In this document: one piece after another, positions 6,031 to 27,663 of the stretch
How positions within the stretch are numbered: position 1 is the first letter of the stretch
Layout of the letters: each line of letters begins with the position of its first letter
Translations under genes and position numbers: made by a program
The notes under the pieces: model-generated
The model's input: only the letters and a program-made list of their open reading frames with translations
Database searches by the model: none
Told to the model about the DNA's origin: nothing
NCBI GenBank assembly: GCA_947623815.1
Contig: CANQHO010000003.1
Coordinates: 1 to 43,903 of the forward strand
Source of the DNA: an uncultured Bacilli bacterium
Lineage (GTDB): Bacteria; Bacillota_I; Bacilli_A; RF39; UBA660
DNA: 43,903 nucleotides
Direction: 5' to 3'

Positions 6031-6057
6031 AAAGAAAATAGTTTTTCTATTTTCTTT
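6031..6057 (-). terminator. Intrinsic terminator after the pilin-amidase gene
   Basis: aaagaaaatag...ctattttcttt inverted repeat followed by Ts on the minus strand. Confidence 0.7.
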
Positions 6058-7954
6058 AACTATTCCTACAAAATTCGTAAAATTCACCTTTTCCTTTAAC
6101 TATTTTACATTTTTTCCCTGAGGCATCTTTTTCACCGACTGGACAATATCCAGTAGAACTAAAATAATAGCAATACCATTTATCTTTTCTTGTACATTTT
6201 CCACCATGCCATTCACAGCCTTGTTGACCTTTAAAAATGTTTGTACAATCAGAATAAGTTTTATATAATTTACAAATATCACTACTTGATTTTTTTTCTA
6301 AATTTTCATGTACTCCATAATTATTATTAGAGTTACTATTTGAATTACTATTGCTGCTAGAACTATTTGAACTACTGCTTGAGCTACTACTAGAACTACT
6401 TGTTGAACTATTAGAACTACTACTATCAGTAGTACTTCTAGCAATTTTACTACCATAATGTTTTTTAAATACATTAGCTAATTCTTTAGCTATTTTTTCT
6501 TTATTTTTATTATATTTATTCATGGCAGCTGTATTATCGTAAAACTCGGTTTCTATATAAGTAATCGGAATATTTAAGCTTTCAAAATAATTAACATTTT
6601 TTAAACTTTGGGTGATGTTACCCATGCTTTTACCGGTATATTTTACTACAGCTTCTTTCAATTCTTTATCGATACTAGACATTCCTTTAGTTCCCAACAT
6701 TAAAAGGGTTCCCTGAGCCGTATGTGAATCACTGGCATTAAAATGAATTTCAATAACATGGGTAAATTTTTTAAATTTCTTTTCATTATTCTTAAATGTT
6801 TGGGTTTTTAAAACATTTTCCACATACATTGATTTATTCATTTTAGCATCTGTTCCACCCAACATTTCATTGGCAATTGAAGCTTTTAAGTTTAAATTAT
6901 CTAATTCTTTTTTCAACAGTTTAGCTAGTATTCTAGTTTGATCTGGTTCTAAGTATTTATATCCACTTTCTTCACGACATTCATTGCTTACTTGGGCACA
7001 ATATGGATAATAAGAGTGACCGGCAATTATCAAAATTCCACCATCACCTTTACTTTTACTGGTGGAAATTTCATCGATTTCCCAATCATCTTCCAATACT
7101 ACTCTATTGGTTGTTTCTGGATTAGGAGTTTTACTAGGTGTTTTATTTTTTCTATCATTGGCACCGGGGTCAATGTATCCGGCCTCTTTACAGTCTGATG
7201 CACTTGTTAAAAAGCATGATACACATCCCATAAAATTATCTTTACTTCCAACTCGGCCAAATACCCACTGAACTATAGCTAGTACAAAGAATATGGCGAC
7301 ACCAGCTATAAGCCTTCTGGTGAATTTATTTTTTTGTTCGTCCATATCTTTTTCTTCACTACTTGTTGTTGCTTTAAAAAAGTCTAACATTCCTAAGGCA
7401 ATTATTATTATTGGAATTAGTAATTTCAATATATTGAATAAAGCTCTAACATACATAGGTAAAGTTTCTGGTATTTGATCTTTGGTATTTCCTGTACAGG
7501 TTATAGCTTTTATTTTTCCTTCGTTTGGGTCTTTACTACTATTATCTTCTTTTTTGGTAGTACTACTACCTGTAACATCTACCGGCATACAGGAATTATT
7601 TTTAACTTCACATTCGTTGCTTCCAACTTTTTTAGGGCATTCGTCAGCTTCATAGTCATAACATGTTTTACTTTCGGAAGTATCAACCGCATTTCCTTCG
7701 GAATCAACGGTAGTAACACATTTATCGTCCTTAACTTCACAGGTCATTCCATTTACTTCTTCAGGACACCCCAAATCCGGATAATCTTCACAATAGGCAT
7801 CTTTACAGGTATTCGATGTTTGATAACAAATTTTACCTTCTGAAGATTTGACTGGACAATTACTCACCTCATATTCATCACATGTTTTGGCAGCATTAAC
7901 TTGAGAAGTAAATAAAATAAAACTAAATAAAAATAATAATATTTTTTTCTTCAC
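6056..7954 (-). CDS. Membrane protein: signal peptide, Cys-rich repeats, TrbC/VirB2-pilin-like 2-TM core, N-acetylmuramoyl-L-alanine amidase (Amidase_3-like), Ser-rich linker, Cys-rich tail
   Basis: Signal peptide MKKKILLFLFSFILF..VNA; CxDYxxxxCP repeats; core ILKLLIPIIIIALGMLDFFKA...KFTRRLIAGVAIFFV; amidase Zn and catalytic motifs IIAGH, E, IEIHFNA, YIETEF. Confidence 0.8.
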   Translation of the reverse strand: MKKKILLFLFSFILFTSQVNAAKTCDEYEVSNCPVKSSEGKICYQTSNTCKDAYCEDYPDLGCPEEVNGMTCEVKDDKCVTTVDSEGNAVDTSESKTCYDYEADECPKKVGSNECEVKNNSCMPVDVTGSSTTKKEDNSSKDPNEGKIKAITCTGNTKDQIPETLPMYVRALFNILKLLIPIIIIALGMLDFFKATTSSEEKDMDEQKNKFTRRLIAGVAIFFVLAIVQWVFGRVGSKDNFMGCVSCFLTSASDCKEAGYIDPGANDRKNKTPSKTPNPETTNRVVLEDDWEIDEISTSKSKGDGGILIIAGHSYYPYCAQVSNECREESGYKYLEPDQTRILAKLLKKELDNLNLKASIANEMLGGTDAKMNKSMYVENVLKTQTFKNNEKKFKKFTHVIEIHFNASDSHTAQGTLLMLGTKGMSSIDKELKEAVVKYTGKSMGNITQSLKNVNYFESLNIPITYIETEFYDNTAAMNKYNKNKEKIAKELANVFKKHYGSKIARSTTDSSSSNSSTSSSSSSSSSSSNSSSSNSNSNSNSNNNYGVHENLEKKSSSDICKLYKTYSDCTNIFKGQQGCEWHGGKCTRKDKWYCYYFSSTGYCPVGEKDASGKKCKIVKGKGEFYEFCRNS

Positions 7955-8847: not shown

Positions 8848-9719
8848 ATGAAAAAAACAAAAGAAAACAGGAACTTGTTTCATTAACAAATGACTTCACC
8901 TTTAAGCAAATTTTTTAAAAAAATCCCATCTTTTTAAAAAAATTTATTAAAGATGTTTTACATCTAGATTTTGATATTGAATCTTTGGATATACAAAATT
9001 CGGAACTAGTAAAACTTAATAAAAACGAGCGTAAAAAAGTTTTAGATATTTATGTAGTTCTAAATGATTTTTATAATCTATCAATTGAACTAAAAAACTG
9101 TGATTATTCCAGTGTTAAAATTAGAAATTTTTTATACCTTAACTCAATTTATAACTCTTTATATAAAAAGGGACAAAAAATTAAAGATGTAAAAGCCAAA
9201 GCAGTTCAGTTAAACTTAAATGTTTTATCTAATGAATTTGACAATTTAGATGGAAAATGTTCTGTTTAAGATCAAGTTAATAACACCGTTATTATTGATA
9301 ATTATAAAATAATCAATAAAAATCTTGCTTATTTAGACGACATAACTTATAATAGGGATAAAGAAAAAGAAATTGCTTGGTGTAGAGCAATTAAGGCTAC
9401 AACTTATAAAGAATTAGATAAAAATTTAAGAATTGTTTTATCTGATGAAGAACGAAAACTATTTTTAAAGGAGGTCAAAAAATTGAATAGTGATAATTTT
9501 TTATATGAATATTGGAAAGATGAAGATGTCAACGAAGTAGTTAGAGAATTGAAACTTGCTCATGCTGAAGAAAAAGGATTTGACAATGGATTTGATAATG
9601 CATCTAAAGAATTTATCAAAAATATGTTGTTAAATGGTGCTGATCTAAACTTTATTTCTAAAGTGTCTGGCAAATCCACCAAAGAAATAAAAACTTTACA
9701 AAAACAACTAATCAATTAA
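8848..9719 (+). pseudogene. Rpn / PD-(D/E)XK nuclease family (PDDEXK_2-like), disrupted
   Basis: LTNDFTFKQIF, LDIYVVLN...IELK and C-terminal EEKGFDNG...IKNMLLNGADLNFISKVSG. Lesions: frameshift shortly after the ATG at 8848, TAA at 8916-8918 and TAA at 9267-9269. Confidence 0.8.
9483..9719 (+). CDS. Intact C-terminal mini-ORF of the Rpn gene (candidate RpnS-type intragenic antitoxin)
   Basis: TTG start preceded by a strong AAGGAGGT Shine-Dalgarno at normal spacing; 78 aa, uninterrupted. Confidence 0.6.
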   Translation: MNSDNFLYEYWKDEDVNEVVRELKLAHAEEKGFDNGFDNASKEFIKNMLLNGADLNFISKVSGKSTKEIKTLQKQLIN

Positions 9720-9736
9720 AAAACAGAATATAAAAA

Positions 9737-9770
9737 CGGACTGTAGAATTTTCAAACAGTCCATTTTATT
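9737..9770. terminator. Terminator between the rpn remnant and the end of the T7SS operon
   Basis: ggactgt...acagtcc inverted repeat flanked by A and T tracts. Confidence 0.65.
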
Positions 9771-9774
9771 TTTA

Positions 9775-9915
9775 TTAAAATTTTTTTATATTTTTTCTTG
9801 TCTTTATATTATCTTGCAATTCTTCATATTTTTGACCATGTTTGTTTTTGATTTCAATTATTTGTTCCTTATTTTTTTTGATTTTTTCTAATAATACCTT
9901 TTTTTCTTCATTCAT
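9775..9915 (-). CDS. Small basic coiled-coil-like protein (46 aa), not in the ORF track
   Basis: Hand-translated MNEEKKVLLEKIKKNKEQIIEIKNKHGQKYEELQDNIKTRKNIKKF. AAGAGGT RBS overlaps the stop of the upstream gene, and it ends just before the terminator. Confidence 0.6.
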   Translation of the reverse strand: MNEEKKVLLEKIKKNKEQIIEIKNKHGQKYEELQDNIKTRKNIKKF

Positions 9916-9918
9916 AAA

Positions 9919-10602
9919 TTACCTCTTGATATAATTTTTTTTACATTTAACACTAAATTCATCATATTTTATTACATTAAATGGTATATTGGTTTCTTTT
10001 CTAACCTTATACTCTAAAAAATTAGTTAATACATCTAATTTTCCCAAATTATTAGCTAAAGAAGAAACTTCATAATTATTTTTATACTGATTATATCTAA
10101 CTCCAATAATAATAGAATTACTAGGTTTATAATATTTCTTATTATCTGGGCCATAATTTATATTCACATTTTCTTCATTAGGATTTTCTAAAATAACATT
10201 TTGATAAGTATTTTCGATAAATTGGAAATTTGAGGAGTTTAAAGATAAATCACCAGTTTTATATATAGACCATAAATAATTTATCTGTTCTCTAGTTAGT
10301 CGTTCTATATAGATGTTATTTCTTAAATAAAAATATTTTAAATACCCTTCTGAAAGATGTTGATAAAGATCTTTTTCTTCATAAGGAACTAAAGGAAAAT
10401 CATCTATTCTTTTTTCTAACTGTTTATCAACATCTAACAAATAGTATTTTTTCATCATAAATTGAATAAGTAAATTATTATAAACATTATATAAAATCAA
10501 ATAACCATTCATTTCTGCATCAGACTTAATATTACATTCTTGTCTTATATTAGGCCTTTCTAATAACAAAAATTCTTCATCTATAAAATTTACTTTATTC
10601 AT
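9919..10602 (-). CDS. Hypothetical protein coupled to the giant T7SS-locus gene (candidate immunity or accessory)
   Basis: 227 aa; start overlaps the upstream stop (ATGA); no signal peptide or recognisable family. Confidence 0.7.
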   Translation of the reverse strand: MNKVNFIDEEFLLLERPNIRQECNIKSDAEMNGYLILYNVYNNLLIQFMMKKYYLLDVDKQLEKRIDDFPLVPYEEKDLYQHLSEGYLKYFYLRNNIYIERLTREQINYLWSIYKTGDLSLNSSNFQFIENTYQNVILENPNEENVNINYGPDNKKYYKPSNSIIIGVRYNQYKNNYEVSSLANNLGKLDVLTNFLEYKVRKETNIPFNVIKYDEFSVKCKKNYIKR

Positions 10603-13600
10603 TCTATTCCCTCCACAACATTAAAGTAAAGACTAAATCTTTTTCCAATCAAATCTTTTATTGGAATCAAAAGTCTTTTACCCCAACTACTAACAACTAA
10701 ATAATCATCTAAAATTCCCGTTATGAAAACAGCATGACCATCTCCTTCTTCCCAAGTTGTTGTTGTTGTATAAACTTCATCAATACTAGACATAAGTCTA
10801 ATTGGTTTGCTTATTTTAAATAGTTCTTTTTTTTCACTAATAATACTTAAAACTATACCATTATTTTCATCTTTTTTCAAATAATTAATAATTGTTTTTT
10901 TAAATTCATTTACATTATTTTTAGTTAACACTTCTTGTTTAGGATCAAAGGTTTTAATAAGATTTCTTTTATAATTTAATTTTATATTTTTACTTTTTAG
11001 AAAAGCTTCAATAATTGTATTATCCTGCCAACCCAAGCCAGATAAATATATTTGATTATTAGTTATTAAATTATCAACATGTAATTTACCAGTTTCATCA
11101 TAAACAAACAAATTCCCTTTTTTACTTCCATTTAGATATTTATTACTATTTATATAAACATACATATCCAAAATTAACTCTGTATAATTAAACTCTTTAT
11201 GTCCATCGATATTTCTATACATTAAATATCCAAAATCTTTTTTGAAAGCTCTAGGATTATCTTTATAAGCTAAGAATATTGAATTAGCTATTGCTGCATA
11301 AGAACAAGTTCCAGAACTATTTATAGCCATTAAAGTTCTAATAGCTTCAAAATAACTCATACCTTGGGAAACTAGTTTTCTTTCTAATCGCATAATTTCA
11401 TTATTATAATCGAAGGTAAAACTTTGTTCTATTACATCCAAAATATCAAAACTATTATCCCGATTACATTTATCATAAAGATATTCAATAATTATAGTTC
11501 CTTCTCTAACCACATCTAAATTAAAATTGGAATTTTTAGACTTTATTTTACTTAAAAATTGTTTAGCTGTATTTACACTATATTCTCTTTTCTTAATTAA
11601 ATAAGAAATAAAATCATTTTCATCTGTTAACCAATCTAGATTTTTTACACCCATCGTCATATAAAATGAAGTTATATTTTGATCAGCACCATATATTTGA
11701 CTAGAATTATTTTTTATAAATAAATCATAGTTTTCTAATACTTGTTGTATCATTTTTTCTTTAATAGTTTCCGGAAAAACTTCATTATAATCAATATTGT
11801 CTAAACTAATATTTTGATGATTAGTAAAGTAATTGTTTATATATTTTATAACACTTGGATTTTTCATATTAGCATACGCTAATAACTTTTTAAAGTTTTC
11901 TTCACTTATGTCTATATTTTGAGTCACTATTTGGGTTAAATCATCTAAAAATATTTTACTACAATCGGCATAAGAAAGATGATTAGATGACTCTTCATTA
12001 GTAAAATTTTTACTAACTTTTAAATAATAAAGCATAAATAAATCATTAAATATAAAATTAGGATCATTTAAATTTTCTTCCGTAATTATTTTATTCATTT
12101 CTTCAATAATTAAATTTTTATCATAAATTTTGTTATCCCTCAACATAAGTTTAAGTTTCAAACTATTTGGCATATCTTCAGCATATACTATAGGAACATC
12201 AATGTTATATTTGTTTATAAAACTATCAACAAATTCTCTATCATTTTGATCCCAATTATATTTCTGATGAATAATATCATTAAATCCTTCTTTTCCAACA
12301 TCTATTTTATTTTTAATTATAATATCGGTATATTTTGTATTCATATTCTTTATTTGTTGAAAAAAGTCTATATATTTATGTTCAAGTAAACCGGGACTAT
12401 CATCATAAACATCTTCAGCATTTTGACGAATAAAATCTCGAACTTCAATTAAATAAAATTTAAATTCATCGGATAATATTAAAGAAGGATTATTAGATAA
12501 TATCTCTTGATTAAAATGTTCTTGGTAGTAATTATATAAAATAGATAAATCTTCAACATTATAAATTTTATTAGTTTTAAACATTATTTTTAGTTTTAAA
12601 CCATCTGATAAATTATCTTTATATCTAACTTTAGAAAAATCTAATTTTTCTAAAGCTTCATTATATAAAGATTCTAATCTTTGTAGTTGAATACTATTTA
12701 AATCTAAATCATAATTATATTTTTTAATTGCATCATATAGTTGCATAAAAGCTTCTAAATAATTTATTTTATAACCACCATCTATAGCTTTTCCATTTTG
12801 TAAAGCTTCATATAAATCTTCATTTTTTATAATATCTAATAAACTTCCAATTGATGCTATTTTTACAAAAGTAGCATCTAAATCTTCATCATAAAAGTTA
12901 AAAACCATATCTTTAGTTGCTTCTATATCATTAGTTTTGTTTAATTTATTATCTATTTTTTTAATTAGTGAATCAATATCGATATCAATTTCATTAGCCC
13001 TAAAAGTTATTTCATAAGTAGCATCAAATTTTCTATTTTCATCTTCTAAAATATCTTTTAAGTATTGAAGTTCACTTTCCGAATTACAATTTTCTATTGC
13101 TTTATTTAATACTTCATTTATTCTATCAGCTGAAAAATATTTATTAACCAAAGAAATATCCGTTGGATTTCTATAACCACTTCTATTATTTTCATGTAAA
13201 ACTAAAATATCTTTTATTAACTTTATATTATTAGTATTATTATATTCCGCTATCAAGTTATCTATCTTAGTACTTTCTTTAATAGCTAAATTATTTATAA
13301 TATTTTCCGTATTGTCATTTTTTATTTCCATATTTGTAAAAGAAGATAATTCTGAAACTGAGTTTCTATTTATTTCTTTTACATTTTTATTTAAGAATTT
13401 ATTATTAGCTGCTAAGTCATATAAATAATCATTATAAATAGCTTTTAAATTACCTATTTTTTTAGTAAATTTTTGTAATTTTTTTCCCTCGATAGTATTT
13501 GGATAATTATCATAGGTATTTTTATCTACTTCCTTATACACTAATTCATTTCCCATTTTAACTAAACAAAAATATTTCTTTTCAGGATTATAATCTGATA

Positions 13601-16600
13601 TATTTAAATTACCTTCGTAAGTTATAGCTTTATCATCTAAATTCCTTATTTTTAATTTATTACTATTTACTAATTGTTCATCAACATTTAATTTTACAGC
13701 TGTTGTTCTAATTGGTAAACTATCTAAATTAGTTAAATAAGCTCCAACACTTGGTACGCCATTAAAGAAAAATGATTTTGGAGTTCCATAACTATTCATA
13801 ACATTGGCTTTTTTTACATAACCAGATTCTATTATCTTATTAGCACTTGTTTCCGATGTAAAATGATAAAGACCATTTTCTAAAATACTTTTATTGACCT
13901 CTTCAATATTATTAGTGTTAGTATATATAAAACGTTTAACTCCTGATTTAAGGGTATTTACAAAACCAGTTATTAAATTATTATCTTGATATTTAAAATC
14001 ACTTAAATCTAACTGATTACTAAAATCATAAGTACTAACACCACCTAAATCAGTTAAAAGATTGATTAAGCTAGTATTTATAAAATTGTTGTTTCCTTCC
14101 AAAGCCAAAAGACCATCTTTAGTGACTTTAAAACCATTTTTGGTAAATATATTCTTATATTTTTCTAATGTTTTAATACTTGCTTCAATATAATATTCAT
14201 CACCATCTTTATTGAAAACAATTTGGGCATGTTCAAAATTAGAATTGTTTTTTATGGTATTGATTAAGCCAATATAATTTCCTACTATTTTGGGGATATC
14301 TTCAGTCATTTTGGTTTGAATTCCTTTACTTATTGAGTCAAAGAAAACATTTGCATTTCTAACATCATCGCCACCATATCCGATATAACCTTCATTACCA
14401 TTTGTAGCCGTAGCATTTTGATAAACAATATTAAAATTCTGATTATCCAAAGACGCCACAATAGAGGGAATTAAAGCCATATTTTTTTGATTGTCAACAA
14501 AAGCCAAATAAGGTCCTCTTCCATCTTCATGTCCAGCACAACTAGCTTTTGTCTCTATTTTACTATTAAAACACTCTAATAATAGTTTTTCCAGTTTTTC
14601 ATTTCCTTCCGCAAAATCATGAGCCGCTTTTTTAATATCGGTTAATTGACTTAACGGTATTGGCACTCCTGTATTTAAACTTTCTGTACTATTAACATTG
14701 GTAAATGTTTTACCACTATTATTATCAATATTACTAAAAATATTTCTTATTCTATCGATAGTTTCTTGTCTTTTAGCCCGTTTTAGTTCTTTTAATTTTT
14801 GCTGTTCCTTTTCTTGTTCTAGTTGATTTATTTTTAATTGTCTAGCAAATTTTTGAGCTTCATTTAAATTTAAGTTACTATAAAAATCGTTTAATATATC
14901 ACTTGATATTTGATTTGAGATCCTATGATTTACTTTTATACTTCCAAATCCCCCAAATCCTATTCCGGATACAAAACCTCCTAAAAATGTCTGTTCTAGT
15001 TGTTTGGCAAAATCTTTATTGGCCATTTGTCTAGCAACATCTTCACTATATCCTTGTTTTATATAATTATCTATAGCTATATTATGATTACTTAATTCTC
15101 CTGATGTTATCTCATCAAAAAAGTAATTTACCAAATCTGTACTTAATTCTTCTTCGCCTTCTACTAAAGCTTGACTCATCGTCATTGCTCCCCCATAAAA
15201 GGTTTTGGTGGCGATAGAAGCTAAAGTTTCATTTGGTATTTTATCAGATATTTTATTAGCTATTTTTACTATTTCAGGACTAGCTTTTCCCTCTAAATTA
15301 AGTAAATGACTTACTGAATAACTTTCCATAAGTGATTCAGTTATTCCAGCTGAAGACGCTAATAAAACTGCTTTCCAATCGGGCAAACCTCTATCTAAAG
15401 AATCATTTAATGTAGATACATATGCTCTTGATCCCATTAAGGCTCCACTTAATATTGGAGCAGTTGTCCCTCCAGTGGCGGCAGTTATGGCTATCAAACT
15501 GGCACTATCAGCCATACTCATCATCGTACTATAAGCAAAAGCTAAGGCTTCACTATCTTCCGCTATATCAGCACTTATAGCTTGTCGATATACATCACTA
15601 CTACTATAGACATTAGTCTTTCTTATTTTCTCATCTCTTATTAAGTAATTTAGGGAATAACAAGCTGCTCCTATTCCTTCTAATGATCCGGTTAGTATTG
15701 ATGAAGCAGACGCTAAAAATTTATGATTTTTCGCATATTCTTCATCTTTTAAGGTTCTATCAACTAACCATCTATTATCTAACTCGTCTGATATATCTTC
15801 TAAGTATTTATATGCTTTATCTAAACCTTGGGTATTATATATATAATTAAATACATCTTTTTCTTGTCTTCCTTGACCACTCATGAATTCTGCCCATTTT
15901 AAATAGTGGTCTAATTTTAAATCATCAGCTTGAATTTGATAGTTTCCTTTCTCAGTTTGAACAAATCCATATTTATCTATTTCTATTTTTCCATTTATTA
16001 TACAGTTTATTATATCTACTAATTCTTCTTTATTTTTTACTATATAAGTTGGACTTCCATTATTTGTCCCAGGTAATTTACCTTGTTCAAATAATTTATT
16101 TATATTTTCTATTGTTTTTATACTTTCTTTTTTAAAGTTATTATTTTTTTCATAATCTTTTTCACTTATATAACTATCAATATTTTTAAAATAATGATTT
16201 ATTTCTTTATTTACGTTTTCATATATAGCTTGATAATTAGCTAAACTTTGTTTTAATGTTTCTATTTGATTATCTATTTTTTTTAAGTTTTCTTCTCTTG
16301 TTTTTACTTCTTCATTATATTTATTAGTCAATTCATCAAAAAATTTCATCTGTTCAATAGTATTATTCCACATATATACGGTGGTTTCTTTTCCGGTAAA
16401 CAATGATTTTGATGTTACTTTAGTTAAATTTCTTAATTTTTCGATATATTTACTATCTTTATACATTTCCTCAAAAGTTAGTGGTACATATTTTATATCA
16501 CTTTCCAAATTAGGAGTTTTATAAACATATCTAGTTTGTCCATTTTCATCTTGATATTTCCACGCTACTATTTCACTTGATAAAATACTTTCTAAATTTT

Positions 16601-17654
16601 CGCCACTTCTTAATCTAGTAACTATTTTTAATAAAGCTTCCATTTCATGAGTATCTTTTAAATCTCTCATATTTATTAGTTTTTGTAATTCGGTTTGATT
16701 GGCTTTGATTACTTCTAATAATTGTGATAAACTTTCGATATTTAATCCATAGGCATGTAAATATGATGCTTCCATTATGGCTTTTCTTCGGGAGTTATCT
16801 TGATCGTTTTCTATTTCTTTCATCAAATCTTCAATAGTTATTTGTTGGTTTATTATTCTTTGAATATCTTTATCTTGAATTCCTATTTTTTGTAATAAAC
16901 CTATCATTTGATTTACATCTATTTCGCTTATATAAGTATTGATTCTAGATATCTCTCCTACACTAGCACTTTTTCCTTGGCCTATATTTAAATTACTAGA
17001 ATTAGAATTATTTTTGATATTAGAGCTCATATTATTTGTCGCTGAAGCTGAAGTACTACTTATTGATGAACCAAAACTAATACTTCCACCATTGGCACTA
17101 ATGTTGGAAGTATTAGGAGCAAAAGAAGATACTGTATAATTATTTTTATTAGTATTAGTAGTACTTTCTATTTTATTTATATTACTAGTAATATTACTAG
17201 AACTAGATGATGAATTTACGTTTATATTGACATTATTATTGCCTTGAATATTACTATTAGTTTGATAAACATGGGTATTATTATTTGTCTGATTACTTAT
17301 ATTAGTTTTTGCGTTACTGTTAACATTACTATTTATATTATTAGATGGGTTAGCTTTAACTGTAGAATCATTTATTTTATTAGTTACTACATTATTAGTA
17401 TTTTCTTTAATACTATTGATTGGACTTTTGGCTGTATTACTAGTAGCAATATTACTTTTATTGATTGTTTTTTCATTTGATGGTACTAAGTCAATCACTT
17501 CTGTTTTGGCTTTATTCGTATTGGTTGTCAAACTTTTTAAATTGGTATTATTTATTTTTACTTTATCAGTTAAACTTTCTACATGAGTATTACTTTTAGT
17601 TACATTTTTAAAGTCTAACCTAATATTTTTATTAACAGATACATTTATCGCCAC
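10599..17654 (-). CDS. Giant multi-domain protein, candidate T7SS effector with C-terminal papain-like cysteine peptidase
   Basis: 2351 aa: Asn/Ser/Thr-rich N-terminus, coiled coils, Ala/Gly-rich hydrophobic block, ASCAGH-motif domain, LYHFT..I.ESG motif, internal repeat, C-terminal GTCSYAA...GHAVFITG...VSSWG. Confidence 0.75.
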   Translation of the reverse strand: MAINVSVNKNIRLDFKNVTKSNTHVESLTDKVKINNTNLKSLTTNTNKAKTEVIDLVPSNEKTINKSNIATSNTAKSPINSIKENTNNVVTNKINDSTVKANPSNNINSNVNSNAKTNISNQTNNNTHVYQTNSNIQGNNNVNINVNSSSSSSNITSNINKIESTTNTNKNNYTVSSFAPNTSNISANGGSISFGSSISSTSASATNNMSSNIKNNSNSSNLNIGQGKSASVGEISRINTYISEIDVNQMIGLLQKIGIQDKDIQRIINQQITIEDLMKEIENDQDNSRRKAIMEASYLHAYGLNIESLSQLLEVIKANQTELQKLINMRDLKDTHEMEALLKIVTRLRSGENLESILSSEIVAWKYQDENGQTRYVYKTPNLESDIKYVPLTFEEMYKDSKYIEKLRNLTKVTSKSLFTGKETTVYMWNNTIEQMKFFDELTNKYNEEVKTREENLKKIDNQIETLKQSLANYQAIYENVNKEINHYFKNIDSYISEKDYEKNNNFKKESIKTIENINKLFEQGKLPGTNNGSPTYIVKNKEELVDIINCIINGKIEIDKYGFVQTEKGNYQIQADDLKLDHYLKWAEFMSGQGRQEKDVFNYIYNTQGLDKAYKYLEDISDELDNRWLVDRTLKDEEYAKNHKFLASASSILTGSLEGIGAACYSLNYLIRDEKIRKTNVYSSSDVYRQAISADIAEDSEALAFAYSTMMSMADSASLIAITAATGGTTAPILSGALMGSRAYVSTLNDSLDRGLPDWKAVLLASSAGITESLMESYSVSHLLNLEGKASPEIVKIANKISDKIPNETLASIATKTFYGGAMTMSQALVEGEEELSTDLVNYFFDEITSGELSNHNIAIDNYIKQGYSEDVARQMANKDFAKQLEQTFLGGFVSGIGFGGFGSIKVNHRISNQISSDILNDFYSNLNLNEAQKFARQLKINQLEQEKEQQKLKELKRAKRQETIDRIRNIFSNIDNNSGKTFTNVNSTESLNTGVPIPLSQLTDIKKAAHDFAEGNEKLEKLLLECFNSKIETKASCAGHEDGRGPYLAFVDNQKNMALIPSIVASLDNQNFNIVYQNATATNGNEGYIGYGGDDVRNANVFFDSISKGIQTKMTEDIPKIVGNYIGLINTIKNNSNFEHAQIVFNKDGDEYYIEASIKTLEKYKNIFTKNGFKVTKDGLLALEGNNNFINTSLINLLTDLGGVSTYDFSNQLDLSDFKYQDNNLITGFVNTLKSGVKRFIYTNTNNIEEVNKSILENGLYHFTSETSANKIIESGYVKKANVMNSYGTPKSFFFNGVPSVGAYLTNLDSLPIRTTAVKLNVDEQLVNSNKLKIRNLDDKAITYEGNLNISDYNPEKKYFCLVKMGNELVYKEVDKNTYDNYPNTIEGKKLQKFTKKIGNLKAIYNDYLYDLAANNKFLNKNVKEINRNSVSELSSFTNMEIKNDNTENIINNLAIKESTKIDNLIAEYNNTNNIKLIKDILVLHENNRSGYRNPTDISLVNKYFSADRINEVLNKAIENCNSESELQYLKDILEDENRKFDATYEITFRANEIDIDIDSLIKKIDNKLNKTNDIEATKDMVFNFYDEDLDATFVKIASIGSLLDIIKNEDLYEALQNGKAIDGGYKINYLEAFMQLYDAIKKYNYDLDLNSIQLQRLESLYNEALEKLDFSKVRYKDNLSDGLKLKIMFKTNKIYNVEDLSILYNYYQEHFNQEILSNNPSLILSDEFKFYLIEVRDFIRQNAEDVYDDSPGLLEHKYIDFFQQIKNMNTKYTDIIIKNKIDVGKEGFNDIIHQKYNWDQNDREFVDSFINKYNIDVPIVYAEDMPNSLKLKLMLRDNKIYDKNLIIEEMNKIITEENLNDPNFIFNDLFMLYYLKVSKNFTNEESSNHLSYADCSKIFLDDLTQIVTQNIDISEENFKKLLAYANMKNPSVIKYINNYFTNHQNISLDNIDYNEVFPETIKEKMIQQVLENYDLFIKNNSSQIYGADQNITSFYMTMGVKNLDWLTDENDFISYLIKKREYSVNTAKQFLSKIKSKNSNFNLDVVREGTIIIEYLYDKCNRDNSFDILDVIEQSFTFDYNNEIMRLERKLVSQGMSYFEAIRTLMAINSSGTCSYAAIANSIFLAYKDNPRAFKKDFGYLMYRNIDGHKEFNYTELILDMYVYINSNKYLNGSKKGNLFVYDETGKLHVDNLITNNQIYLSGLGWQDNTIIEAFLKSKNIKLNYKRNLIKTFDPKQEVLTKNNVNEFKKTIINYLKKDENNGIVLSIISEKKELFKISKPIRLMSSIDEVYTTTTTWEEGDGHAVFITGILDDYLVVSSWGKRLLIPIKDLIGKRFSLYFNVVEGIE

Positions 17655-17668: not shown

Positions 17669-17911
17669 TTATATTTTGCCGTTTATCATTGGTATCAATT
17701 CTAAAATTATTTCTTGTTTTATTTCACTAACTATTTTTTTATTTTTTAAAAATTGTTCTTCATCAACTATTTTTTTGTCAATTACTAATGTATTATTCAT
17801 AAAAGCTTGTAAATTATCCATATTTTCTTCTAAATTTTCCAATTTTTCTTTTATTGAATAAAGCTGACTTTTTAAAAAAGCATATTTTATTTTTAATATT
17901 TCTTCTTCCAT
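17669..17911 (-). CDS. Small helical protein, T7SS accessory candidate
   Basis: 80 aa, heptad-like, GGAG RBS; directly upstream of the giant gene. Confidence 0.65.
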   Translation of the reverse strand: MEEEILKIKYAFLKSQLYSIKEKLENLEENMDNLQAFMNNTLVIDKKIVDEEQFLKNKKIVSEIKQEIILELIPMINGKI

Positions 17912-17920
17912 ATTTTCTCC

Positions 17921-18223
17921 TTAGTTAATATCTTTAAATATTTGAGTAACTTTATGACTAGTTTCTTTATATGTTTCAATTTTTTTAATTAAATAGTCAA
18001 GATCATTTTCATGTATATTTTGAATAGTTCTAAATTTATTAGTTAATTGTTCTTGTAAATCATTTAATGAATCACTATTAGAAGTTTTATAATAATAATT
18101 GATATTTTTAAAGGTATTTTTTATCTCATCAAAATTTACATCTATCATAGCTTTATAAGTTTTGATTTTTTCAATTGTCATATTCATTTTTTCAATATCC
18201 ATTAAATTTTCCAAATTACTCAC
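17921..18223 (-). CDS. WXG100-fold-like small protein
   Basis: 100 aa with a helix-turn-helix pattern; central YYKT where WxG normally lies; in the essC locus. Confidence 0.55.
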   Translation of the reverse strand: MSNLENLMDIEKMNMTIEKIKTYKAMIDVNFDEIKNTFKNINYYYKTSNSDSLNDLQEQLTNKFRTIQNIHENDLDYLIKKIETYKETSHKVTQIFKDIN

Positions 18224-18767
18224 CTTGTTCTTCTTTTATTATTTCAATGTCAATACTAGATGTTTTTTCACTAACCATATTTTCATTTTTTTCTATTTTA
18301 TCCAAAGTATTTTTGAGATCTTTTTTTATATTCATCAAATCTTTTTCTATCAGTTCTAGTTTTTGTTTCTCACTATTTATAATAGATGCTTCAACCGGGC
18401 AAAAACTAGTATCTAAAATATCGTAATAATCTACAATATCAGCTATAGAGGTAGCTATTTGATTAAATAAATCTTCTATTTTGGATTTTTTATTGAAGTC
18501 AAAAAAGATATTTTTACCAATACCTTGATTTTCATTGATTAAATAGTTATAAATATTATCAATTTCTTTTAATTCACCATAAGTATTTTCTAGTTTAACT
18601 TTATCAACTGATATTTTTTGATTAAATTCATTAGATTCATTTCCTTGCCAAATAAAAGATATTGATTCTAATTCATTATAGATATTCAAATAGTTTGTTT
18701 GAAAATCATCTAATATTTTTTTCAATTTGTTATTTTCGGTTTCTATTTTATCTAATTGTATTTCCAT
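18216..18767 (-). CDS. WXG100-domain protein (extended)
   Basis: Likely start MEIQLDKI at 18767 (AGGTGA RBS); WQG motif about 40 residues in, later YLINE (YxxxE). Confidence 0.7.
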   Translation of the reverse strand: MEIQLDKIETENNKLKKILDDFQTNYLNIYNELESISFIWQGNESNEFNQKISVDKVKLENTYGELKEIDNIYNYLINENQGIGKNIFFDFNKKSKIEDLFNQIATSIADIVDYYDILDTSFCPVEASIINSEKQKLELIEKDLMNIKKDLKNTLDKIEKNENMVSEKTSSIDIEIIKEEQGE

Positions 18768-18779
18768 TTTATCACCTAA

Positions 18780-18827
18780 TTTTCCTAAATACATAAAAGT
18801 GAATATACTTTTACATATTTAGGAAAA
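18780..18827 (-). terminator. Long intergenic hairpin (terminator or mRNA stabiliser)
   Basis: ttttcctaaata-tgt-aaaagt...actttt-atg-tatttaggaaaa on the minus strand, a stem of about 21 bp with G-U pairs. Confidence 0.7.
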
Positions 18828-18845: not shown

Positions 18846-19487
18846 TTAACCACCAAATGCGGCTGAAACTTTTCCTTTCATATCTTCAGCACTATTAGCT
18901 TTACTTTCAAGTTTTTTCTTCATTGCATCAGCTGTTTCAATATTAAGATTATCTAGATTTGTTTGAATAATAGATACTGAACTATTTAAAGCGGCTTGTT
19001 GAGCTCCACCATCATCATAAAAACCACAATTGGTAACAGCACTTTTGACATTTTCAAGTGCGGAAGAAGCCTCAGCTGCTAATGAAGAAATAACACCTAC
19101 TACATCAAGTGCAGCACTAACATCGACTCCTATAACTCCATTAATTTCTTTTCTAAATCCACTAGTGTCTACTGTTTGAAGTGCACCATCAAAAGAACTT
19201 TCTGAATATGATTCTTGGTTTTCTATTGCCCAAGCCGTTCCTGCTGAATTCATAGCATTAACTATTTCTAGACATTTATCATATGTAGCTTGAAGAATAC
19301 CATTTACAGTTTCACCAAAAGCATTAAATGTGTCTATAGCTTCTTGACTTGCCCATTTAGTTGCCATTTCATCAATGACTTGACTTTGCATATTAGTACC
19401 CATTGCAGTAACAGCATCTTTATAAGCACTATTAACTGAAGCGATAGACGACCTAATTTCGTCAGGATTAAAACCTGTTGTTGCCAT
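18846..19487 (-). CDS. Ala-rich WXG100-like protein, probably two tandem helical hairpins (EsxA-equivalent candidate)
   Basis: Likely start MATTGFNPDE at 19487 (GGAGGTG RBS); KWAS at the WxG position; own promoter; follows essC-esaB. Confidence 0.65.
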   Translation of the reverse strand: MATTGFNPDEIRSSIASVNSAYKDAVTAMGTNMQSQVIDEMATKWASQEAIDTFNAFGETVNGILQATYDKCLEIVNAMNSAGTAWAIENQESYSESSFDGALQTVDTSGFRKEINGVIGVDVSAALDVVGVISSLAAEASSALENVKSAVTNCGFYDDGGAQQAALNSSVSIIQTNLDNLNIETADAMKKKLESKANSAEDMKGKVSAAFGG

Positions 19488-19530
19488 TATTTCACCTCCC
19501 TCTTTTCGGATATGTTCCTTATCCATAATA

Positions 19531-19560
19531 ATCATATCACAATTTTTATATAAATATCAA
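19531..19560 (-). promoter_or_regulatory. Sigma-A promoter for the WXG100-like/effector cluster
   Basis: TTGATA-N18-TATGAT with extended TG. Confidence 0.5.
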
Positions 19561-19666: not shown

Positions 19667-19933
19667 TTATTCTGATTTAAAAATCAATATTAACTCTGTA
19701 CCATTTCTAATATCTGTTTCAATTAAAATATCATTATTTGAATATATTTTACTAGTATCTTTATTTAATAAAATAACTTCATCATCGATATTTAATGGAA
19801 TATTTTTTAAGTCAGCCACTGATTTAATAATCAACTTTTTAATTTTCCATACCAATTCATTAACTGGCAAAAAAAGATCAAAACTAGTATCCAAATCGGG
19901 AATAAATAATTTAACTAATACCTTATTTTCCAT
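19667..19933 (-). CDS. EsaB/YukD-like ubiquitin-fold T7SS protein
   Basis: Likely start MENKVLVKL at 19933, overlapping the essC stop; FDLFLP and C-terminal L.ETDIRNGTELILI fit the YukD/EsaB pattern. Confidence 0.75.
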   Translation of the reverse strand: MENKVLVKLFIPDLDTSFDLFLPVNELVWKIKKLIIKSVADLKNIPLNIDDEVILLNKDTSKIYSNNDILIETDIRNGTELILIFKSE

Positions 19934-22900
19934 CTTGTTCCTCTTTTCCAAAAAAATTAAGTAATTTACAAAGAGTGGTAACACTATCACTTACAACATA
20001 TCCCATATTATTAGAAATATCTAACAACAATTGTTTAGTAATACTAGATAAATGCAATAAATTTTGACTACCTATACCATTGCCAATCCATATACCATTA
20101 TTGACACTAAAGAAATTATTAAACCATGTCTCAAACGCAAACTGTTTTATTTTAGCTGCATCATCACATATAACAACAGCTATTTTTTCATATTTCTTAA
20201 TCTTTTTAATAAAATCTTCCATTTTTCTTTTATCATCTAATTTGTTGATAAATTTATTTAAACCATAAATTAAAATAATTCCTTGTTGGTTGGAATGATT
20301 ATTTATTAGCTGATCTAAATAATTACTTATTCCATCCATATATTTATCTATATTATCAGTATAATAATTTGAATAATTATTATCCAATTTAAGAGCCTTT
20401 AAAGGATCAAATATCATTAAACTAAGATTAGGAATTTTACGAACTTCTTCTATAAAACTTTTTACAAATATATTGGTAGCATTTAATCGATTAGCAGTTA
20501 TTATATAACCTAAATTTGATAATAAATCTATGGTATTTACTTCTAAATTCTTTTTATTCATACCAACTGGAATACTACTAATATCACCAATATAATTTAA
20601 AACATTTTCCCAAGTCACAAATTCAGGTAATACTGGTATCAATTTAGCTTTATAAGTATTTTTCTGATTGACTTGTTCAATAAATTTACTTAAATATTCA
20701 TTTAAATTATTTTCATCTTCTAAAATACTGGCAGTTTGAAATTCATGAATTACATCTTGTTTTAATAATCCTCGACCAATTATATCCCTTAAAGTGACTC
20801 TAACTCGCATACCAAAAACGGATACATAATCACTAGAATCTTTCATTCTAAAAGCATAAACATTAGAACAATTCTGACTAATTTTATTATGGACAGAATT
20901 ATTAGCATTAGCGGTTATAATAAAGATAATACCATATCTTTCTGAATCTCTAATTATATCGGGAAGTTCATCATAAATACTTTGATTAGATTCATAAATA
21001 GAATCATAATTGTTTAAAACAATAATTTTTAAAGGAATTGGTTCTTTATTTTGAATATAACTTTCATATGAACCTCCAAAATTCACAAATTGCTTTTTTC
21101 TTTGTTGTAATTCTTCTTTAATCAGTTTAAACAAATTATTGTATTTTTCATCTTCACCCGCAAAGACAATTCCTCCAACATGAGCTAAATTTTGAAATCT
21201 TCTTAATGATTCGGAACCATAGTCAATAAAGTAAAAATTAACTTCATCAGCTTGATGATTTTTGACTGTAGAATAAATCATGGCATTTAAAAGCATTTCA
21301 CGTTCACTACCATCATTACCGTAAATAATAGTATTTCCATTGTTTAAATAATCATAACAAATAAGACCTTGTTCTTGGATTTCTGGAGCATCATACTCTC
21401 CTATTACGGCTTTAACATGATATTTAACTGGAGTATAATTATATTTACTTTCCAAATTATTAACTGTTATAATTGGTGGAATATTATCTAACCATAATTT
21501 TCTAGCTTTTTTATTTACACGTTCTGATGCCGAAATAATAGAATTCATAATAGAAGCTAATTGTTCGCCTTTAGCTTCTAATTTTATATTAGAGGCAGCT
21601 TGTAAACTTTTAACAATTACTCCACAATCATTGATAAAATTTATACTTTTATCTACTTGTTTAATAATAGTATCCGAAGGATAGTATTTAGCCCCACACC
21701 AAGCTGATTGACCTAAAGCAAAATATTCATCAAATCCAACTTGCAGATAGAAACGTCCGGTTTGTTTAATAAAAGCGGCTTCAGGTCTTTTAAGCATTTC
21801 TTTACTATCTTGTTCATCTTGAACTTTTAAACAAACTCTAAATTTAGCATTTGACCAGATTTGATCATTTACTACTCCACTTGGTTTTTGAGTTGCTAGA
21901 ATAAGGTGAACACCTAAAGAACGTCCAATTCTGGCAACACTTATTAAGTTGTCCATAAATTCCGGTTGTTGGGCTTTTAATTCAGCAAATTCATCACATA
22001 TTATAAATAGATGAGGAATAGCTTCACTTAATCTTCCATCTTTATAAAAACCTTGATATTTATAAATATTCATGGTGCTTTCCCCTAATTTATCACGAGC
22101 TTCATTAAATATTTTTTGTCTTCTTTTAACTTCACTATCAATACTAACTAAAGTTCTATCCATCTCCGCTTTATCTAAGTTGGTAATTGTTCCCGCTAAA
22201 TGCGGTAAAATTATATTATTAGTTTTGTTTTCAAAAGCAAAAGCTAAACCTCCACCTTTATAGTCAATTAAAATAAACGATACATCATCCGGACTATAAT
22301 TGATACACAAAGATAAAATATAAGTAATAATAAACTCTGATTTACCAGATCCTGTCATACCAGCTATTAAACCATGAGGTCCATGGTAGGTTTCATGTAA
22401 ATCTAAGTACATTAAATCACCATTTTCATCAACCCCTATTTCGGTTTTCAAACTTTCAGTTGGCGTGCTAGTATTCCATCTATTTAATATATTTAATTGT
22501 TCTACTTTACCTATTTTTTCCATTTCTAAAAATGATAAAGAATCTGGTAAAGACCGCATATCATTTTCAAATTCAATTGGAATGTTAGATAAAGTTTTTA
22601 CTACTTTACTTAAATCAACCGGATAATTGGTATCATTAGTTACCGTTATTTGTTCTTGTTCTTCATAAGCATTTTTAAGTACTTCAGTGTTATTATTAGA
22701 AACACTAATAAAGTTATTACATTTACTTGGTAATTTACTTAATTGATTTTCTAAAATAACTAAACTAAATCCCAAATTATCATCCATTTCAGTTACTGTT
22801 TTCGCAAATTCAAATCTTTTTATTTCATCATATCCATCAACAATAATAAAGTAATAAGGTTTAAAAATTGTTTTTTTATTGGATAATTGATTTATACGAC

Positions 22901-24595: not shown

Positions 24596-26194
24596 CTATA
24601 AACATTTTTTCTTTATTTGATTATAAACTGCTGTATATCCAGCATCCGTATAATGTAATAAATCAGAAGCATATTTTCCTTTTAAAGATAGATCTTTATT
24701 TATATTACAATAACTGACATTACTCAATTTAGCAGATGATATTTTAGACTTCATTGCTGAATTAAAATCACTTATATTAGTTTTAGTTACTGGATAACTA
24801 CCACCCGTAGAATCACCACCTATAGGTGTTACAGATCCAAAAATTATATTTTGATTTTTCCAATCACCTTTAGCAAGCTTCTTTACTATATCCATATATT
24901 TTGTAGCTACTGCTTTAACCTCTGATGACGTACCAGAAATATCATTTACACCTAATAATATAACAATATTATACTTAGTATTTGAATCATTTTTTAGAAT
25001 GGTAGTAACTCCATTAGATCCGGTTTGTTCAAACCAAATATAACCTTTTCCCGTTTGACAAACAGCTTGATAATCACGACATGTTCCAGAATAATAACTA
25101 TCACCAACACCACAAATACCAGCAGTTCTAGAATCACCTAACAATATAGTTTTAGTTCCCTTTTTATTTTTCTTAGAAGACTTATTATCATCATCATCTT
25201 TAGTATTAGTAGTTACAGTATGGGTTGATTTTGGTGGAACTTTAGTTGGGGTTTTATTTTGGCGATCATTAACAGCAGGATCAATATATCCAGCATCTCT
25301 ACAATCAGATTCTGTTGTTAAGAAACAAGATACACATCCCATAAAATTATTTTTTTCTCCAACTAGTCCAAATACCCATTGACTAATAGCCATAACAAAG
25401 AATATCGCAAGTCCAGCAATTATTCTTCTAACAAACTTGTTTTTTTGATCATCCATGTTACTTTCATTAGAACTTGTCATGGCTTTAAAGAAATCTAACA
25501 TACCTAATACAATTATAATAATAGGAACTAATAATTTTAAAATATTATATAAAGCTCGGACAAAAGCTGGCAAACCAGCTGGTATTTGATCTCCATCATT
25601 CCCCGTACAGGAAATAGCTTTTATTTGGCCTACACTACCGCCACCGGTATCAGTAGAAGGAGTTGTAGGATTTTCCATTTCTTCTTTAGTCGTTGTTGTA
25701 ATACATGCTTTTGATGTCGAACTACAAACACTACCATTTAAACTAGTTGGACAATCTTCTCCTGGCTCATAATCTTCACATTTAGTTTCACTTTTTAATT
25801 TACAACCAGTTTTGGTTTTCCCACAAGCATTTCCATCGGCATAATCAGGGCAAGCATCCTTGCTATAATCGGAACATATTTTATGGTTTTGATTAGTTGC
25901 TGCATTGATACACTTTTCGGTTGTTTCATCGTAATCACATAATTGTCCCGTACTATCCAAACCACAAGATTTCTCTCCAAATATTAAATACTTTTTTTTC
26001 GGCTCAACACTAGAACACGGTGTTTTTATTGTTTTAAAATCGCACTTTCCATCGATAACTGCACATGTATTTTTTTTATCATCTGTTTTATGTTTAGAAC
26101 AATCCTTGGTAGAATAATCCGTACAATACTTTCCATAAACACTAGGTACTAGTACAAAAAAACATAAAATAATAAACAACAATTTTTTCTTCAT
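24596..26194 (-). CDS. Signal peptide, Cys-rich repeats, TrbC/VirB2-pilin-like core, SGNH/GDSL hydrolase
   Basis: Same core as 6056..7954; SGNH blocks LLGDS, G (TGKG), LLGVND and DLLH. Confidence 0.8.
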   Translation of the reverse strand: MKKKLLFIILCFFVLVPSVYGKYCTDYSTKDCSKHKTDDKKNTCAVIDGKCDFKTIKTPCSSVEPKKKYLIFGEKSCGLDSTGQLCDYDETTEKCINAATNQNHKICSDYSKDACPDYADGNACGKTKTGCKLKSETKCEDYEPGEDCPTSLNGSVCSSTSKACITTTTKEEMENPTTPSTDTGGGSVGQIKAISCTGNDGDQIPAGLPAFVRALYNILKLLVPIIIIVLGMLDFFKAMTSSNESNMDDQKNKFVRRIIAGLAIFFVMAISQWVFGLVGEKNNFMGCVSCFLTTESDCRDAGYIDPAVNDRQNKTPTKVPPKSTHTVTTNTKDDDDNKSSKKNKKGTKTILLGDSRTAGICGVGDSYYSGTCRDYQAVCQTGKGYIWFEQTGSNGVTTILKNDSNTKYNIVILLGVNDISGTSSEVKAVATKYMDIVKKLAKGDWKNQNIIFGSVTPIGGDSTGGSYPVTKTNISDFNSAMKSKISSAKLSNVSYCNINKDLSLKGKYASDLLHYTDAGYTAVYNQIKKKCL

Positions 26195-27628: not shown

Positions 27629-27663
27629 TTTTTCCTCCTTACGAAGCATAAATTCTTTTATAA

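Follow-up and report, generated by a model that had tools for sequence, protein, structure and literature searches.

Genomic features of the locus

The stretch of DNA described here, referred to as the window, is 43,903 nucleotides (nt) long and corresponds to contig CANQHO010000003.1 (positions 1 to 43,903, forward strand) of GenBank assembly GCA_947623815.1, from an uncultured Bacilli bacterium of the GTDB lineage Bacteria; Bacillota_I; Bacilli_A; RF39; UBA660. The source genome is 1.36 Mb in size and 94.6 % complete, in an assembly of 96 contigs; the window is its contig C3. The DNA runs listed with the sequence are labelled rabbit gut or gut metagenome, and no RNA run is among them. The minus strand of the window carries essC, which encodes the FtsK/SpoIIIE-type ATPase of type VII secretion systems (T7SS), followed by a YukD/EsaB-like gene, four small genes for helical proteins (p229, p192, p100 and p80), a giant gene encoding a protein of 2351 amino acids (aa), and a downstream partner gene, p227. 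The giant protein is the subject of this report and is probably a polymorphic effector of the T7SS. The features of the locus and of the giant protein are shown in Table 1.

Table 1 Features of the EssC cassette and of the giant protein, with coordinates in the window
Feature	Coordinates	Strand	Basis
EssC, T7SS FtsK/SpoIIIE-type ATPase, 1516 aa	19923..24473	-	TIGR03928, 936 bits
YukD/EsaB-like small protein, 107-aa open reading frame	19667..19990	-	Position after EssC
p229, helical, first of four cassette-specific small partners	18846..19535	-	Family at same position in 11 related loci
p192, helical, N-terminal half WXG100-like	18216..18794	-	TIGR03930, E 0.032; family in 9 loci
p100, helical, 100 aa	17921..18223	-	Family in 9 loci
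p80, helical, 80 aa, directly 5' of giant gene	17669..17911	-	Family in 8 loci
Giant gene, probable T7SS-linked polymorphic multi-domain effector, 2351 aa	10599..17654	-	GTG start
Residues 1-235: Asn/Ser/Thr-rich leader with alternating hydrophobic/polar N-terminus	16950..17654	-	Composition
Short linear motif E52-V-I-D-L56	17487..17501	-	Form E-[TSEV]-h-D-[LFMI]
Residues 236-435: family-specific start of N-module, helices and small beta unit	16350..16949	-	Conserved in Bacilli family
Residues 436-943: helical domain rich in small residues, core ~597-915	14826..16349	-	Common to phage polyvalent proteins
Residues 944-1215: charged helix, then domain without recognised fold	14010..14825	-	Common only to closest relatives
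Residues 1253-1425: shuffled module, candidate H-Y-D type ADP-ribosyltransferase	13380..13898	-	Sub-threshold match
Residues 1471-2030: mostly helical region	11565..13244	-	Accompanies protease module in some relatives
Residues 2050-2351: predicted papain-like cysteine peptidase module (Cys2117, His2307)	10602..11507	-	Fold model and invariant residues
p227, cytoplasmic partner of protease module (candidate immunity protein or inhibitor), 227 aa	9919..10602	-	4-nt overlap

The giant open reading frame (ORF) begins 14 nt past the stop of the preceding gene, with a Shine-Dalgarno-like AAGGGG motif 8-9 nt 5' of its start, and the same GTG start is found in a 79 %-identical homologue (P0002). The G+C content of the region is 20-33 %, and because a 7-kb frame stays open at this composition and has 23 close homologues, the ORF is real, far beyond chance, as it had been called in a preliminary description of the window made from the letters alone. 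The whole protein has no match in Pfam, PHROG, NCBIfam or the PDB sequences.

A conserved N-terminal module with shuffled C-terminal modules

A word-indexed search with residues 236-1040 of the giant protein matched 32 proteins. Twenty-three of these are close homologues of 1472-3969 aa that share 31-79 % identity over most of residues ~235-943, with 47-100 % coverage of the N-module (a few only 47-70 %); after about residue 943 their sequence is wholly different or rearranged. A scan of 1.84 billion representatives gave 1009 matches at E<=1e-3, 431 at <=1e-10 and 95 at <=1e-30. In BLAST comparisons the modules at residues 1216-1470, 1455-2351 and 2075-2350 are placed differently in different relatives, residues 1455-2351 being collinear with the C-termini of P0003, P0004 and P0008 and partly so with those of P0005, P0009, P0019 and P0002. 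The last 400 residues of 68 ORFs longer than 1400 aa, a set that pools giants, EssCs and phage polyvalent proteins, fall into 25 clusters, 18 of them singletons. Sequence comparison thus indicates a family that keeps a ~700-aa N-module (residues 236-943) and shuffles its C-terminal modules; a conserved N-terminal half with swapped C-terminal domains was what the preliminary description had suggested looking for among homologues, and it was seen.

Pfam leaves most of the cargo of the 41 scanned close relatives unrecognised, and most of the 41 are without any Pfam match; some relatives carry transglutaminase-core or HD domains. The several globular-looking domains noted earlier in the window protein could be resolved in part, in that two modules (described below) were delimited, the rest being without match: residues 944-1215 have no Pfam match at E<=0.1 and the Atlas gave nothing usable for residues 1035-1215, and residues 1471-2030 have no family match in a segment scan. 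Two stretches of the giant protein look alike by eye, though a self-BLAST found no significant internal repeat.

The EssC cassette

EssC exceeds the TIGR03928 cut-off (778.4 bits) over residues 223-1498 and matches Pfam FtsK_SpoIIIE with an E-value of 3.7e-40. The YukD-like gene stands next after essC in 12 related loci, with 33-69 % identity, and four of eight homologues gave weak matches to ubiquitin-like domains (E 1.9e-4 to 4.5e-3, all below cut-off); the true start of the window copy is probably an internal ATG giving MENKVLV... The four small helical genes expected directly 5' of the giant gene were all seen. A weak WXG100 match was obtained in the C-terminal part of two of 12 p229 homologues, and the p192 family includes a bona fide WXG100 protein in locus L016 (36.5 bits, cut-off 27.3) and a member in L004 with an E-value of 4.1e-4. 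The match of p100 to the NCBIfam model ESAT6_2 (E 3.5e-4, 20.7 bits) is far under the cut-off of 100, and its homologues have no Pfam match. Neither p80 nor its homologues match any family; p80 genes always lie just before the giant gene (8 loci).

Thirty-nine loci were taken from species-representative genomes, 20 of them from close relatives, mostly bins labelled uncultured Bacilli. Linkage could be counted in the 15 of these 20 loci that had enough flanking sequence, the other five being too short to judge. EssC is linked to the giant gene on the same strand in 14 of the 15, upstream with the YukD-like gene in 12 and downstream in two; no EssC lies within 10 kb of the giant gene in L013. 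Linkage of homologues to essC, on which the earlier T7SS assignment hung, is thereby borne out. The conserved order is EssC, YukD-like, p229-like, p192-like, p100-like, p80-like, giant gene and downstream partner, and the housekeeping genes outside the cassette vary from genome to genome. The EssC proteins of the cassette loci are mostly 50-57 % identical to the window EssC, with 38-45 % in L011, L012, L016, L017 and L020. Ten other EssC loci of the order have EssCs of 40-44 % identity and short WXG100-like genes, with no giant gene and no full homologues of p229, p192 or p80. The N-module occurs in two of 151 genomes of the order, and the other carrier (G007) has the full cassette with an EssC of 57 % identity. 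Because the gene order is kept while the flanks differ, the N-module occurs in so few genomes and the other EssC loci lack the partners, the cassette behaves, by its sequence, as a self-contained accessory unit of patchy distribution that brings its own EssC variant and partners.

Five cassette contigs (L005, L006, L007, L009 and L010) lie in bins labelled Muribaculaceae or Methanobacteriaceae, and these labels are probably binning errors rather than signs of transfer.

Leader and residues 236-435

The low-complexity start described earlier is borne out by residue counts, the leader (residues 1-235) consisting of 25 % Asn, 18 % Ser and 11 % Thr. Among 44 family representatives the leader has a median length of 230 aa (range 125-538) and a variable sequence, and 32 of the 44 have an alternating hydrophobic/polar N-terminus. 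Of the 44 full-length representatives, 34 have the motif E-[TSEV]-h-D-[LFMI] between positions 42 and 77, against an expectation of 0.2 from shuffled leaders. Residues 236-435 were modelled with a predicted local distance difference test (pLDDT) score of mostly 77-90; they were found in none of 73 viral loci and have no specific match among PDB structures. This region is a candidate T7SS-targeting region, and the E-x-h-D-h motif, residues 236-435 and the four partners may, we infer, form a recognition unit.

Small-residue-rich helical domain and its phage relatives

The Ala/Gly/Ser-rich block lies where the preliminary description had put it (14940-15720, residues 645-905), and it is the best-conserved part of the family and carries invariant motifs. 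The AlphaFold model of the N-module (708 residues) has a pLDDT of 80.6 and a predicted template modelling (pTM) score of 0.68, and contains a 59-residue helix at residues 433-491.

Nine polyvalent proteins match the N-module query of the word-indexed search at E 1.2e-14 to 8.6e-4; by BLAST they share only residues ~598-891, at 22-29 % identity, and these phage-type matches carry the domains ART-PolyVal, PBECR5, LPD3, LPD23 and MuF_C. Such domain sets are those of the polyvalent proteins of phages and conjugative elements of Iyer, Burroughs, Anand, de Souza and Aravind (2017, PMC5512222). The loci of the polyvalent matches, in Clostridia bins, have genes for a portal (phrog_156), a major head protein (phrog_1357) and an internal virion protein (phrog_511) 5' of the giant gene (phrog_22978). 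When viral contigs were scanned, 73 loci were obtained, in all of which the match is confined to about positions 244/346-700 of the 708-residue query; 72 of the 73 match segment 598-943 and the median length of their longest ORF is 3245 aa. No match to EssC, to a partner gene, to residues 236-597 or to a cargo module was seen in any of the 73, and none contains the full N-module. A structure search of BFVD with the N-module model returned seven matches at E<=1e-3 (best 1.5e-9), all of them first (N-terminal) pieces of phage polyvalent proteins. By sequence and model comparison, residues ~597-915 and the N-terminal region of the giant polyvalent proteins of podovirus-like phages are therefore homologous.

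A quick maximum-likelihood tree of 99 domain sequences placed 21 T7SS-linked copies on one branch, with a Shimodaira-Hasegawa-like approximate likelihood ratio test (SH-aLRT) value of 100, and the prophage and viral-contig copies in the same tree are intermixed. The direction of transfer of the domain is open because the tree is unrooted. The N-module profile matched nothing among the PDB sequences. In one phage-type locus (L032:703-2982), a gene whose product has a GH-E HNH nuclease domain at its C-terminus, followed by an Imm33 immunity gene, lies just 5' of the portal gene.

Papain-like peptidase module and its partner p227

The model of the C-terminal module has a pLDDT of 82.2 and a pTM of 0.81, and in it Cys2117 lies at the N-terminus of the central helix (model residues 86-100) and His2307 at the start of a strand (276-285). 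Six residues, G2115, C2117, N2124, G2142, H2307 and W2324, are invariant in all 23 aligned sequences. A Foldseek search of the PDB with the module gave four matches at E<=1e-3, all papain-fold enzymes, with further papain-fold enzymes below. In an independent all-against-representatives search (VIA wide) the top 50 rows consist almost entirely of clan-CA peptidases (Z 5.8-8.7), the best being PeiR with Z 8.7 (root mean square deviation 3.1 over 136 residues), IdeS with 8.5, and xylellain and staphopain C with 8.2; the list further includes C39 domains and a CdiA-CT toxin. Since the structural scores are middling, the argument for the fold lies in the uniformity of the match list. The module has no Pfam match, and its profile drew only spurious matches to designed WD-repeat proteins from the PDB sequences. 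Residues 2050-2351 are thus predicted, from the model, to be a papain-fold Cys/His peptidase module, in agreement with the terminal protease proposed earlier.

By iterated profile the module was found in 14 of the 23 close homologues and in nine loci, being terminal in some relatives and internal in others. It also ends proteins of 900-1230 aa with other helical N-termini and occurs in a 273-aa stand-alone form, and these short proteins have no Pfam match in the module.

The start of p227 overlaps the stop of the giant gene by 4 nt (ATGA), as seen earlier, and the two genes are translationally coupled. The p227 gene had been taken for an orphan, a view that does not hold, in that the p227 family follows the protease module: it is present in exactly the nine loci with the module, terminal or internal, and absent together with it from four complete loci (L004, L011, L013 and L016), with no discordant locus among 13 complete loci. 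No signal peptide was recognised in p227 by eye, and the protein has no family match. Predicted complexes of the protease module with p227 scored 0.46, 0.43 and 0.74 against 0.33 for a control, which gives no answer and is not used as evidence.

ADP-ribosyltransferase-like module and candidate toxin-immunity genes in relatives

The Pfam model Tox-ART-HYD1 (PF15633) matches residues 1262-1293 with an E-value of 6.2e-4 and 20.8 bits, covering positions 1-33 of the 97 in the profile. The nearest named Atlas clusters of the module are three ADP-ribosyltransferase (ART) families, at 0.87-0.88. The module is found in eight sequences, elsewhere placed in P0003, P0010, P0020, P0023 and L008, and the His of its G-L-x-H-x-T motif is kept in all eight copies. 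Residues 1253-1425 are a candidate HYD1-type ADP-ribosyltransferase on this sequence similarity.

In L014 the giant protein ends in an ADPrib_exo_Tox domain (31.7 bits, cut-off 23.4), and its gene is followed by a DUF4176-like gene and then by an ADP-ribosylglycohydrolase gene (ADP_ribosyl_GH, 2.1e-35). The giant gene of L011 is likewise followed by an ADP_ribosyl_GH gene (1.7e-72), with no recognised ART domain in the L011 giant, and P0075 also ends in ADPrib_exo_Tox. To judge from these sequences, the relatives obey the logic of polymorphic toxins. The small DUF4176-like gene (L014:18734-19021) matches that family at E 2.5e-5, just below cut-off.

Type VII secretion in the host lineage

The source genome has no match to the EssB, EsaA-N, LXG, WXG100 and YukD models above the Pfam/TIGR cut-offs; PF10140, TIGR03929 and PF06013 gave no match in it (EssA was not searched for), nor did PF08817 (YukD). 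The absence of a recognisable LXG domain from the giant protein, reported earlier, was reproduced in searches with PF04740 of the whole protein (E<=0.01), of its segments (E<=5) and of the genome (E<=0.01). The hydrophobic block was also considered as a PT-TG domain and this was rejected, PF14449 having no match in the genome at E<=10 or in the segment scan. In a sample of small genomes of the order (0.6-1.6 Mb), EssC is above cut-off in 78 of 151, EssB in none of 151 and LXG in none of 61. Because EssC is frequent in the absence of EssB and LXG, the lineage seems, from these gene counts, to run a reduced T7SS of an undescribed type.

A second EssC is encoded in the source genome on contig C19 (~9441-14257, minus strand); it is 1519 aa long, 36 % identical to the first and has its own YukD-like gene, with housekeeping genes directly downstream and no giant gene or helical partners.

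Other genes in the window

Three paralogous secreted proteins are encoded on the minus strand at 24596-26194, 26216-27649 and 6056-7954. They have in common a Cys-rich N-terminal region and a membrane segment that weakly resembles type IV secretion system (T4SS) pilins and the Mbov_0395 pilin-like conjugal transfer protein, and their C-terminal ends are a GDSL lipase, an unassigned domain and Amidase_3. A place in the system was considered for the Cys-rich pilin-like hydrolase genes 5' of EssC and rejected, since related loci lack them. Beyond p227, on the opposite strand, lie a PD-(D/E)XK transposase fragment (PF12784, E 1.4e-7) at 8985-9269 (+), which may be a remnant marking the cassette edge, and a small ORF at 9483-9719 (+). 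A 406-aa protein without family match (35636-36856, minus strand) overlaps a 208-aa pentapeptide-repeat protein (35013-35639, minus strand) by 4 nt.

Comparison with known systems

The locus resembles those of LXG polymorphic toxins of T7SSb with their Lap/WXG100-like partners, in that the giant gene comes after essC and esaB with small helical genes before it, and the protein has a conserved N-terminal part, swapped C-termini and downstream cytoplasmic immunity-type genes. The examples compared were the Tel toxins of Streptococcus intermedius and EsaD of Staphylococcus aureus with EsxB/C/D and EsaE, the layout being drawn from the available parts of Garrett et al. (2024, PMC11217815) and of PMC13483458. 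Unlike LXG toxins, the giant protein has no detectable LXG domain and places a ~700-aa N-module after a ~235-aa disordered leader; it also has several cargo modules and a phage-related domain, and it belongs to a lineage in which the EssB and LXG counts are zero. It is 3-5 times the size of a typical LXG toxin. The S8-type polymorphic toxin system in the available part of PMC9424270 was considered and found to be unrelated.

The T7SS subtypes T7SSb-j, as far as they are set out in the available part of PMC11217815, share with the cassette an EssC (TsxC) with an N-terminal extension (before residue 223 here), a candidate for the ubiquitin-like TsxB, and small WXG100-like proteins encoded next to a candidate substrate. 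None of the subtypes described in that part consists only of EssC, a YukD-like protein, helical proteins and a giant substrate. The survey, in the same part, used RefSeq, and the host lineage is known only from metagenome bins.

Like polyvalent proteins, the giant protein is very large and multidomain, has shuffled enzymatic modules and shares the homologous residues ~597-915; unlike them, it is encoded in an EssC cassette with immunity-type genes alongside. None of the signature polyvalent domains (ART-PolyVal, LPD, PBECR and MuF_C) occurs in the giant protein or in the 41 close relatives that were scanned, and the related Bacilli loci are free of genes of phage or conjugation type, whether portal, capsid, relaxase or VirB4-like. 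Neither 'type VII' nor 'WXG', nor transmembrane or ejection, came up in a term search of the available part of Iyer et al. (2017, PMC5512222), and a text search of the papers available found none joining 'polyvalent protein' and 'type VII secretion'.

The predicted peptidase module shares its fold and the placement of Cys and His with clan CA peptidases, including the toxin forms CdiA-CT of Citrobacter rodentium (8ssm) and a papain-like toxin/immunity pair (9l5u); unlike them it lacks a Pfam or PDB-sequence match, and its structural similarity is limited (best Z 8.7, TM 0.25-0.40). We take its H-A-x-x-I-T-G ... V-S-S-W-G motifs to resemble H-A ... N-S-W-G of papain, with a Ser presumably at the position of the papain Asn. 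MARTX toxins and large clostridial toxins, which the giant protein may resemble in the way it works, combine a giant polypeptide with a membrane-engaging region, enzymatic cargo and a cysteine protease domain. They differ in using a type I secretion system or none instead of a T7SS, and in that the likely targets of the giant protein are bacteria and a partner gene is present. No homology to either was found, and the likeness is one of functional analogy, not of membership.

Interpretation

The giant protein is, at a probability of about 70 %, a polymorphic effector that is exported by the T7SS independently of Sec and belongs to an undescribed family of small-genome gut Bacilli. The disordered leader with its E-x-h-D-h motif, residues 236-435 and the four helical partners would hand the protein over to EssC, much in the manner of LXG-Lap complexes. 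Once outside, the protein would engage the membrane of the target cell through its phage-like helical domain, which would aid the crossing of the cargo, a task that the phage-borne homologues would also face on ejection into their host, and the peptidase and probably the ART-like module would act in the target cytoplasm. The p227 protein, in which no signal peptide was seen, would protect the producer. More tentatively, and on balance doubtfully, a helical domain of phage virions may have been captured once by a T7SS toxin lineage as a device for translocating an enzyme chain across the target membrane. The preliminary reading of the protein was largely right; what it had added about a membrane-inserting segment and multiple warheads was not shown, and the downstream gene is no orphan.

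Several points weigh against this interpretation. The link of the giant gene to the T7SS is one of synteny alone, and there is no LXG domain and no match in the genome to WXG100, YukD, EssB or EsaA above cut-off, the small proteins being only weakly WXG100-like, so the machine is atypical. The highest 19-residue Kyte-Doolittle mean of the Ala/Gly/Ser-rich block is 1.27 and no classical transmembrane helix is present; because no stretch reaches transmembrane hydrophobicity, the membrane role of the domain is inferred solely from its homology to phage-borne proteins, and any action on membranes would come from amphipathic helices with many small residues. In phages, too, the domain has no assigned function. 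A Foldseek search of the PDB with the N-module model gave unrelated membrane proteins (best E 0.049), and the VIA wide search with it gave only generic two-helix hairpins (Z<=8.9), single domains possibly being missed at 708 residues. The ART-like module is below the Pfam cut-off of 25 bits and its Atlas matches are below the 0.9 mark, which leaves one solid enzymatic module. The nine loci with protease module and p227 and the four with neither are not a statistical test, because the loci are related and the counts not independent. Finally, the protease module is more common in the family than any other module, and a conserved processing role therefore fits it as well as that of a variable warhead.

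That processing role is the core of an alternative, unlikely in our view, in which the papain-like module is an autoprocessing protease that frees the cargo after delivery and is no warhead, p227 being a safety inhibitor in the producer. Besides being so widespread, the module is often internal with another C-terminal domain behind it (twice in L002, and in L007, L009 and L014), L014 having an internal protease together with its terminal ART toxin and the glycohydrolase gene that goes with the latter; the arrangement resembles the cysteine protease domain of MARTX. The peptidase domains of polyvalent proteins are reportedly held by Iyer and colleagues to serve in processing. Processing by the module is not required, because four complete members have neither protease nor p227; the C-terminal place of the module in the 900-1230-aa proteins, along with its stand-alone form, is the usual one for a toxin domain, and p227, being dedicated, cytoplasmic and coupled in translation, has the traits usual for an immunity protein. 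Between poisoning by the protease and processing of a polyprotein the data favour neither decisively.

Two further explanations place the protein outside the toxins. It may be a polyvalent protein of a mobile element, delivered with DNA to disarm the recipient, with the EssC cassette as the transfer apparatus. The domain common to phage polyvalent proteins, the patchiness of the cassette and its varied neighbourhoods, the transposase fragment just past p227 and the nearby genes with T4SS-pilin-like segments would all fit this; it is nevertheless quite improbable, given that the related loci are flanked by housekeeping genes and lack portal, capsid, relaxase and VirB4-like genes, that the pilin-like genes are not kept beside EssC elsewhere, that the signature polyvalent domains are missing, and that the partner and immunity genes argue for self-protection against a toxin. 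Highly improbable is a structural role in a reduced T7SS, for instance as an envelope-spanning stalk that replaces EsaA/EssB and is not a substrate. The absence of EssB and EsaA from the genome and of EssB from the order sample, and the size and conservation of the N-module, are in keeping with such a part; the machine works without the N-module, however, because EssC is present in 78 of 151 genomes and the N-module in only two, the giant protein has no transmembrane segment or signal peptide, and mosaic enzyme-bearing C-termini with immunity-type genes do not fit a structural component.

Conclusions

The evidence is best accounted for by a family of giant modular effectors that is real, conserved, linked to the T7SS and not described before. 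Its trafficking module is new and contains a domain of probable phage origin, and in kind its members are probably T7SS polymorphic toxins. The toxins of T7SSb are known mainly from LXG proteins of cultured Bacillota, and their recognition by the machine and their entry into the prey cytoplasm are poorly understood. A larger and different trafficking module, in a lineage seemingly without EssB, EsaA and LXG, widens the rules for export by EssC, and the family is a source of enzyme modules as yet unrecognised by current libraries. The homology to polyvalent proteins ties two conflict systems together, and the conserved domain of ~320 residues, with its invariant motifs, can be tested for membrane activity. 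If the proposed capture of the phage domain were true, type VII secretion would be a third delivery route of polyvalent multi-enzyme proteins, besides phage capsids and conjugation, and the domain would offer a handle on how cytoplasm-acting toxins of T7SSb enter prey and how giant phage cargo enters hosts.

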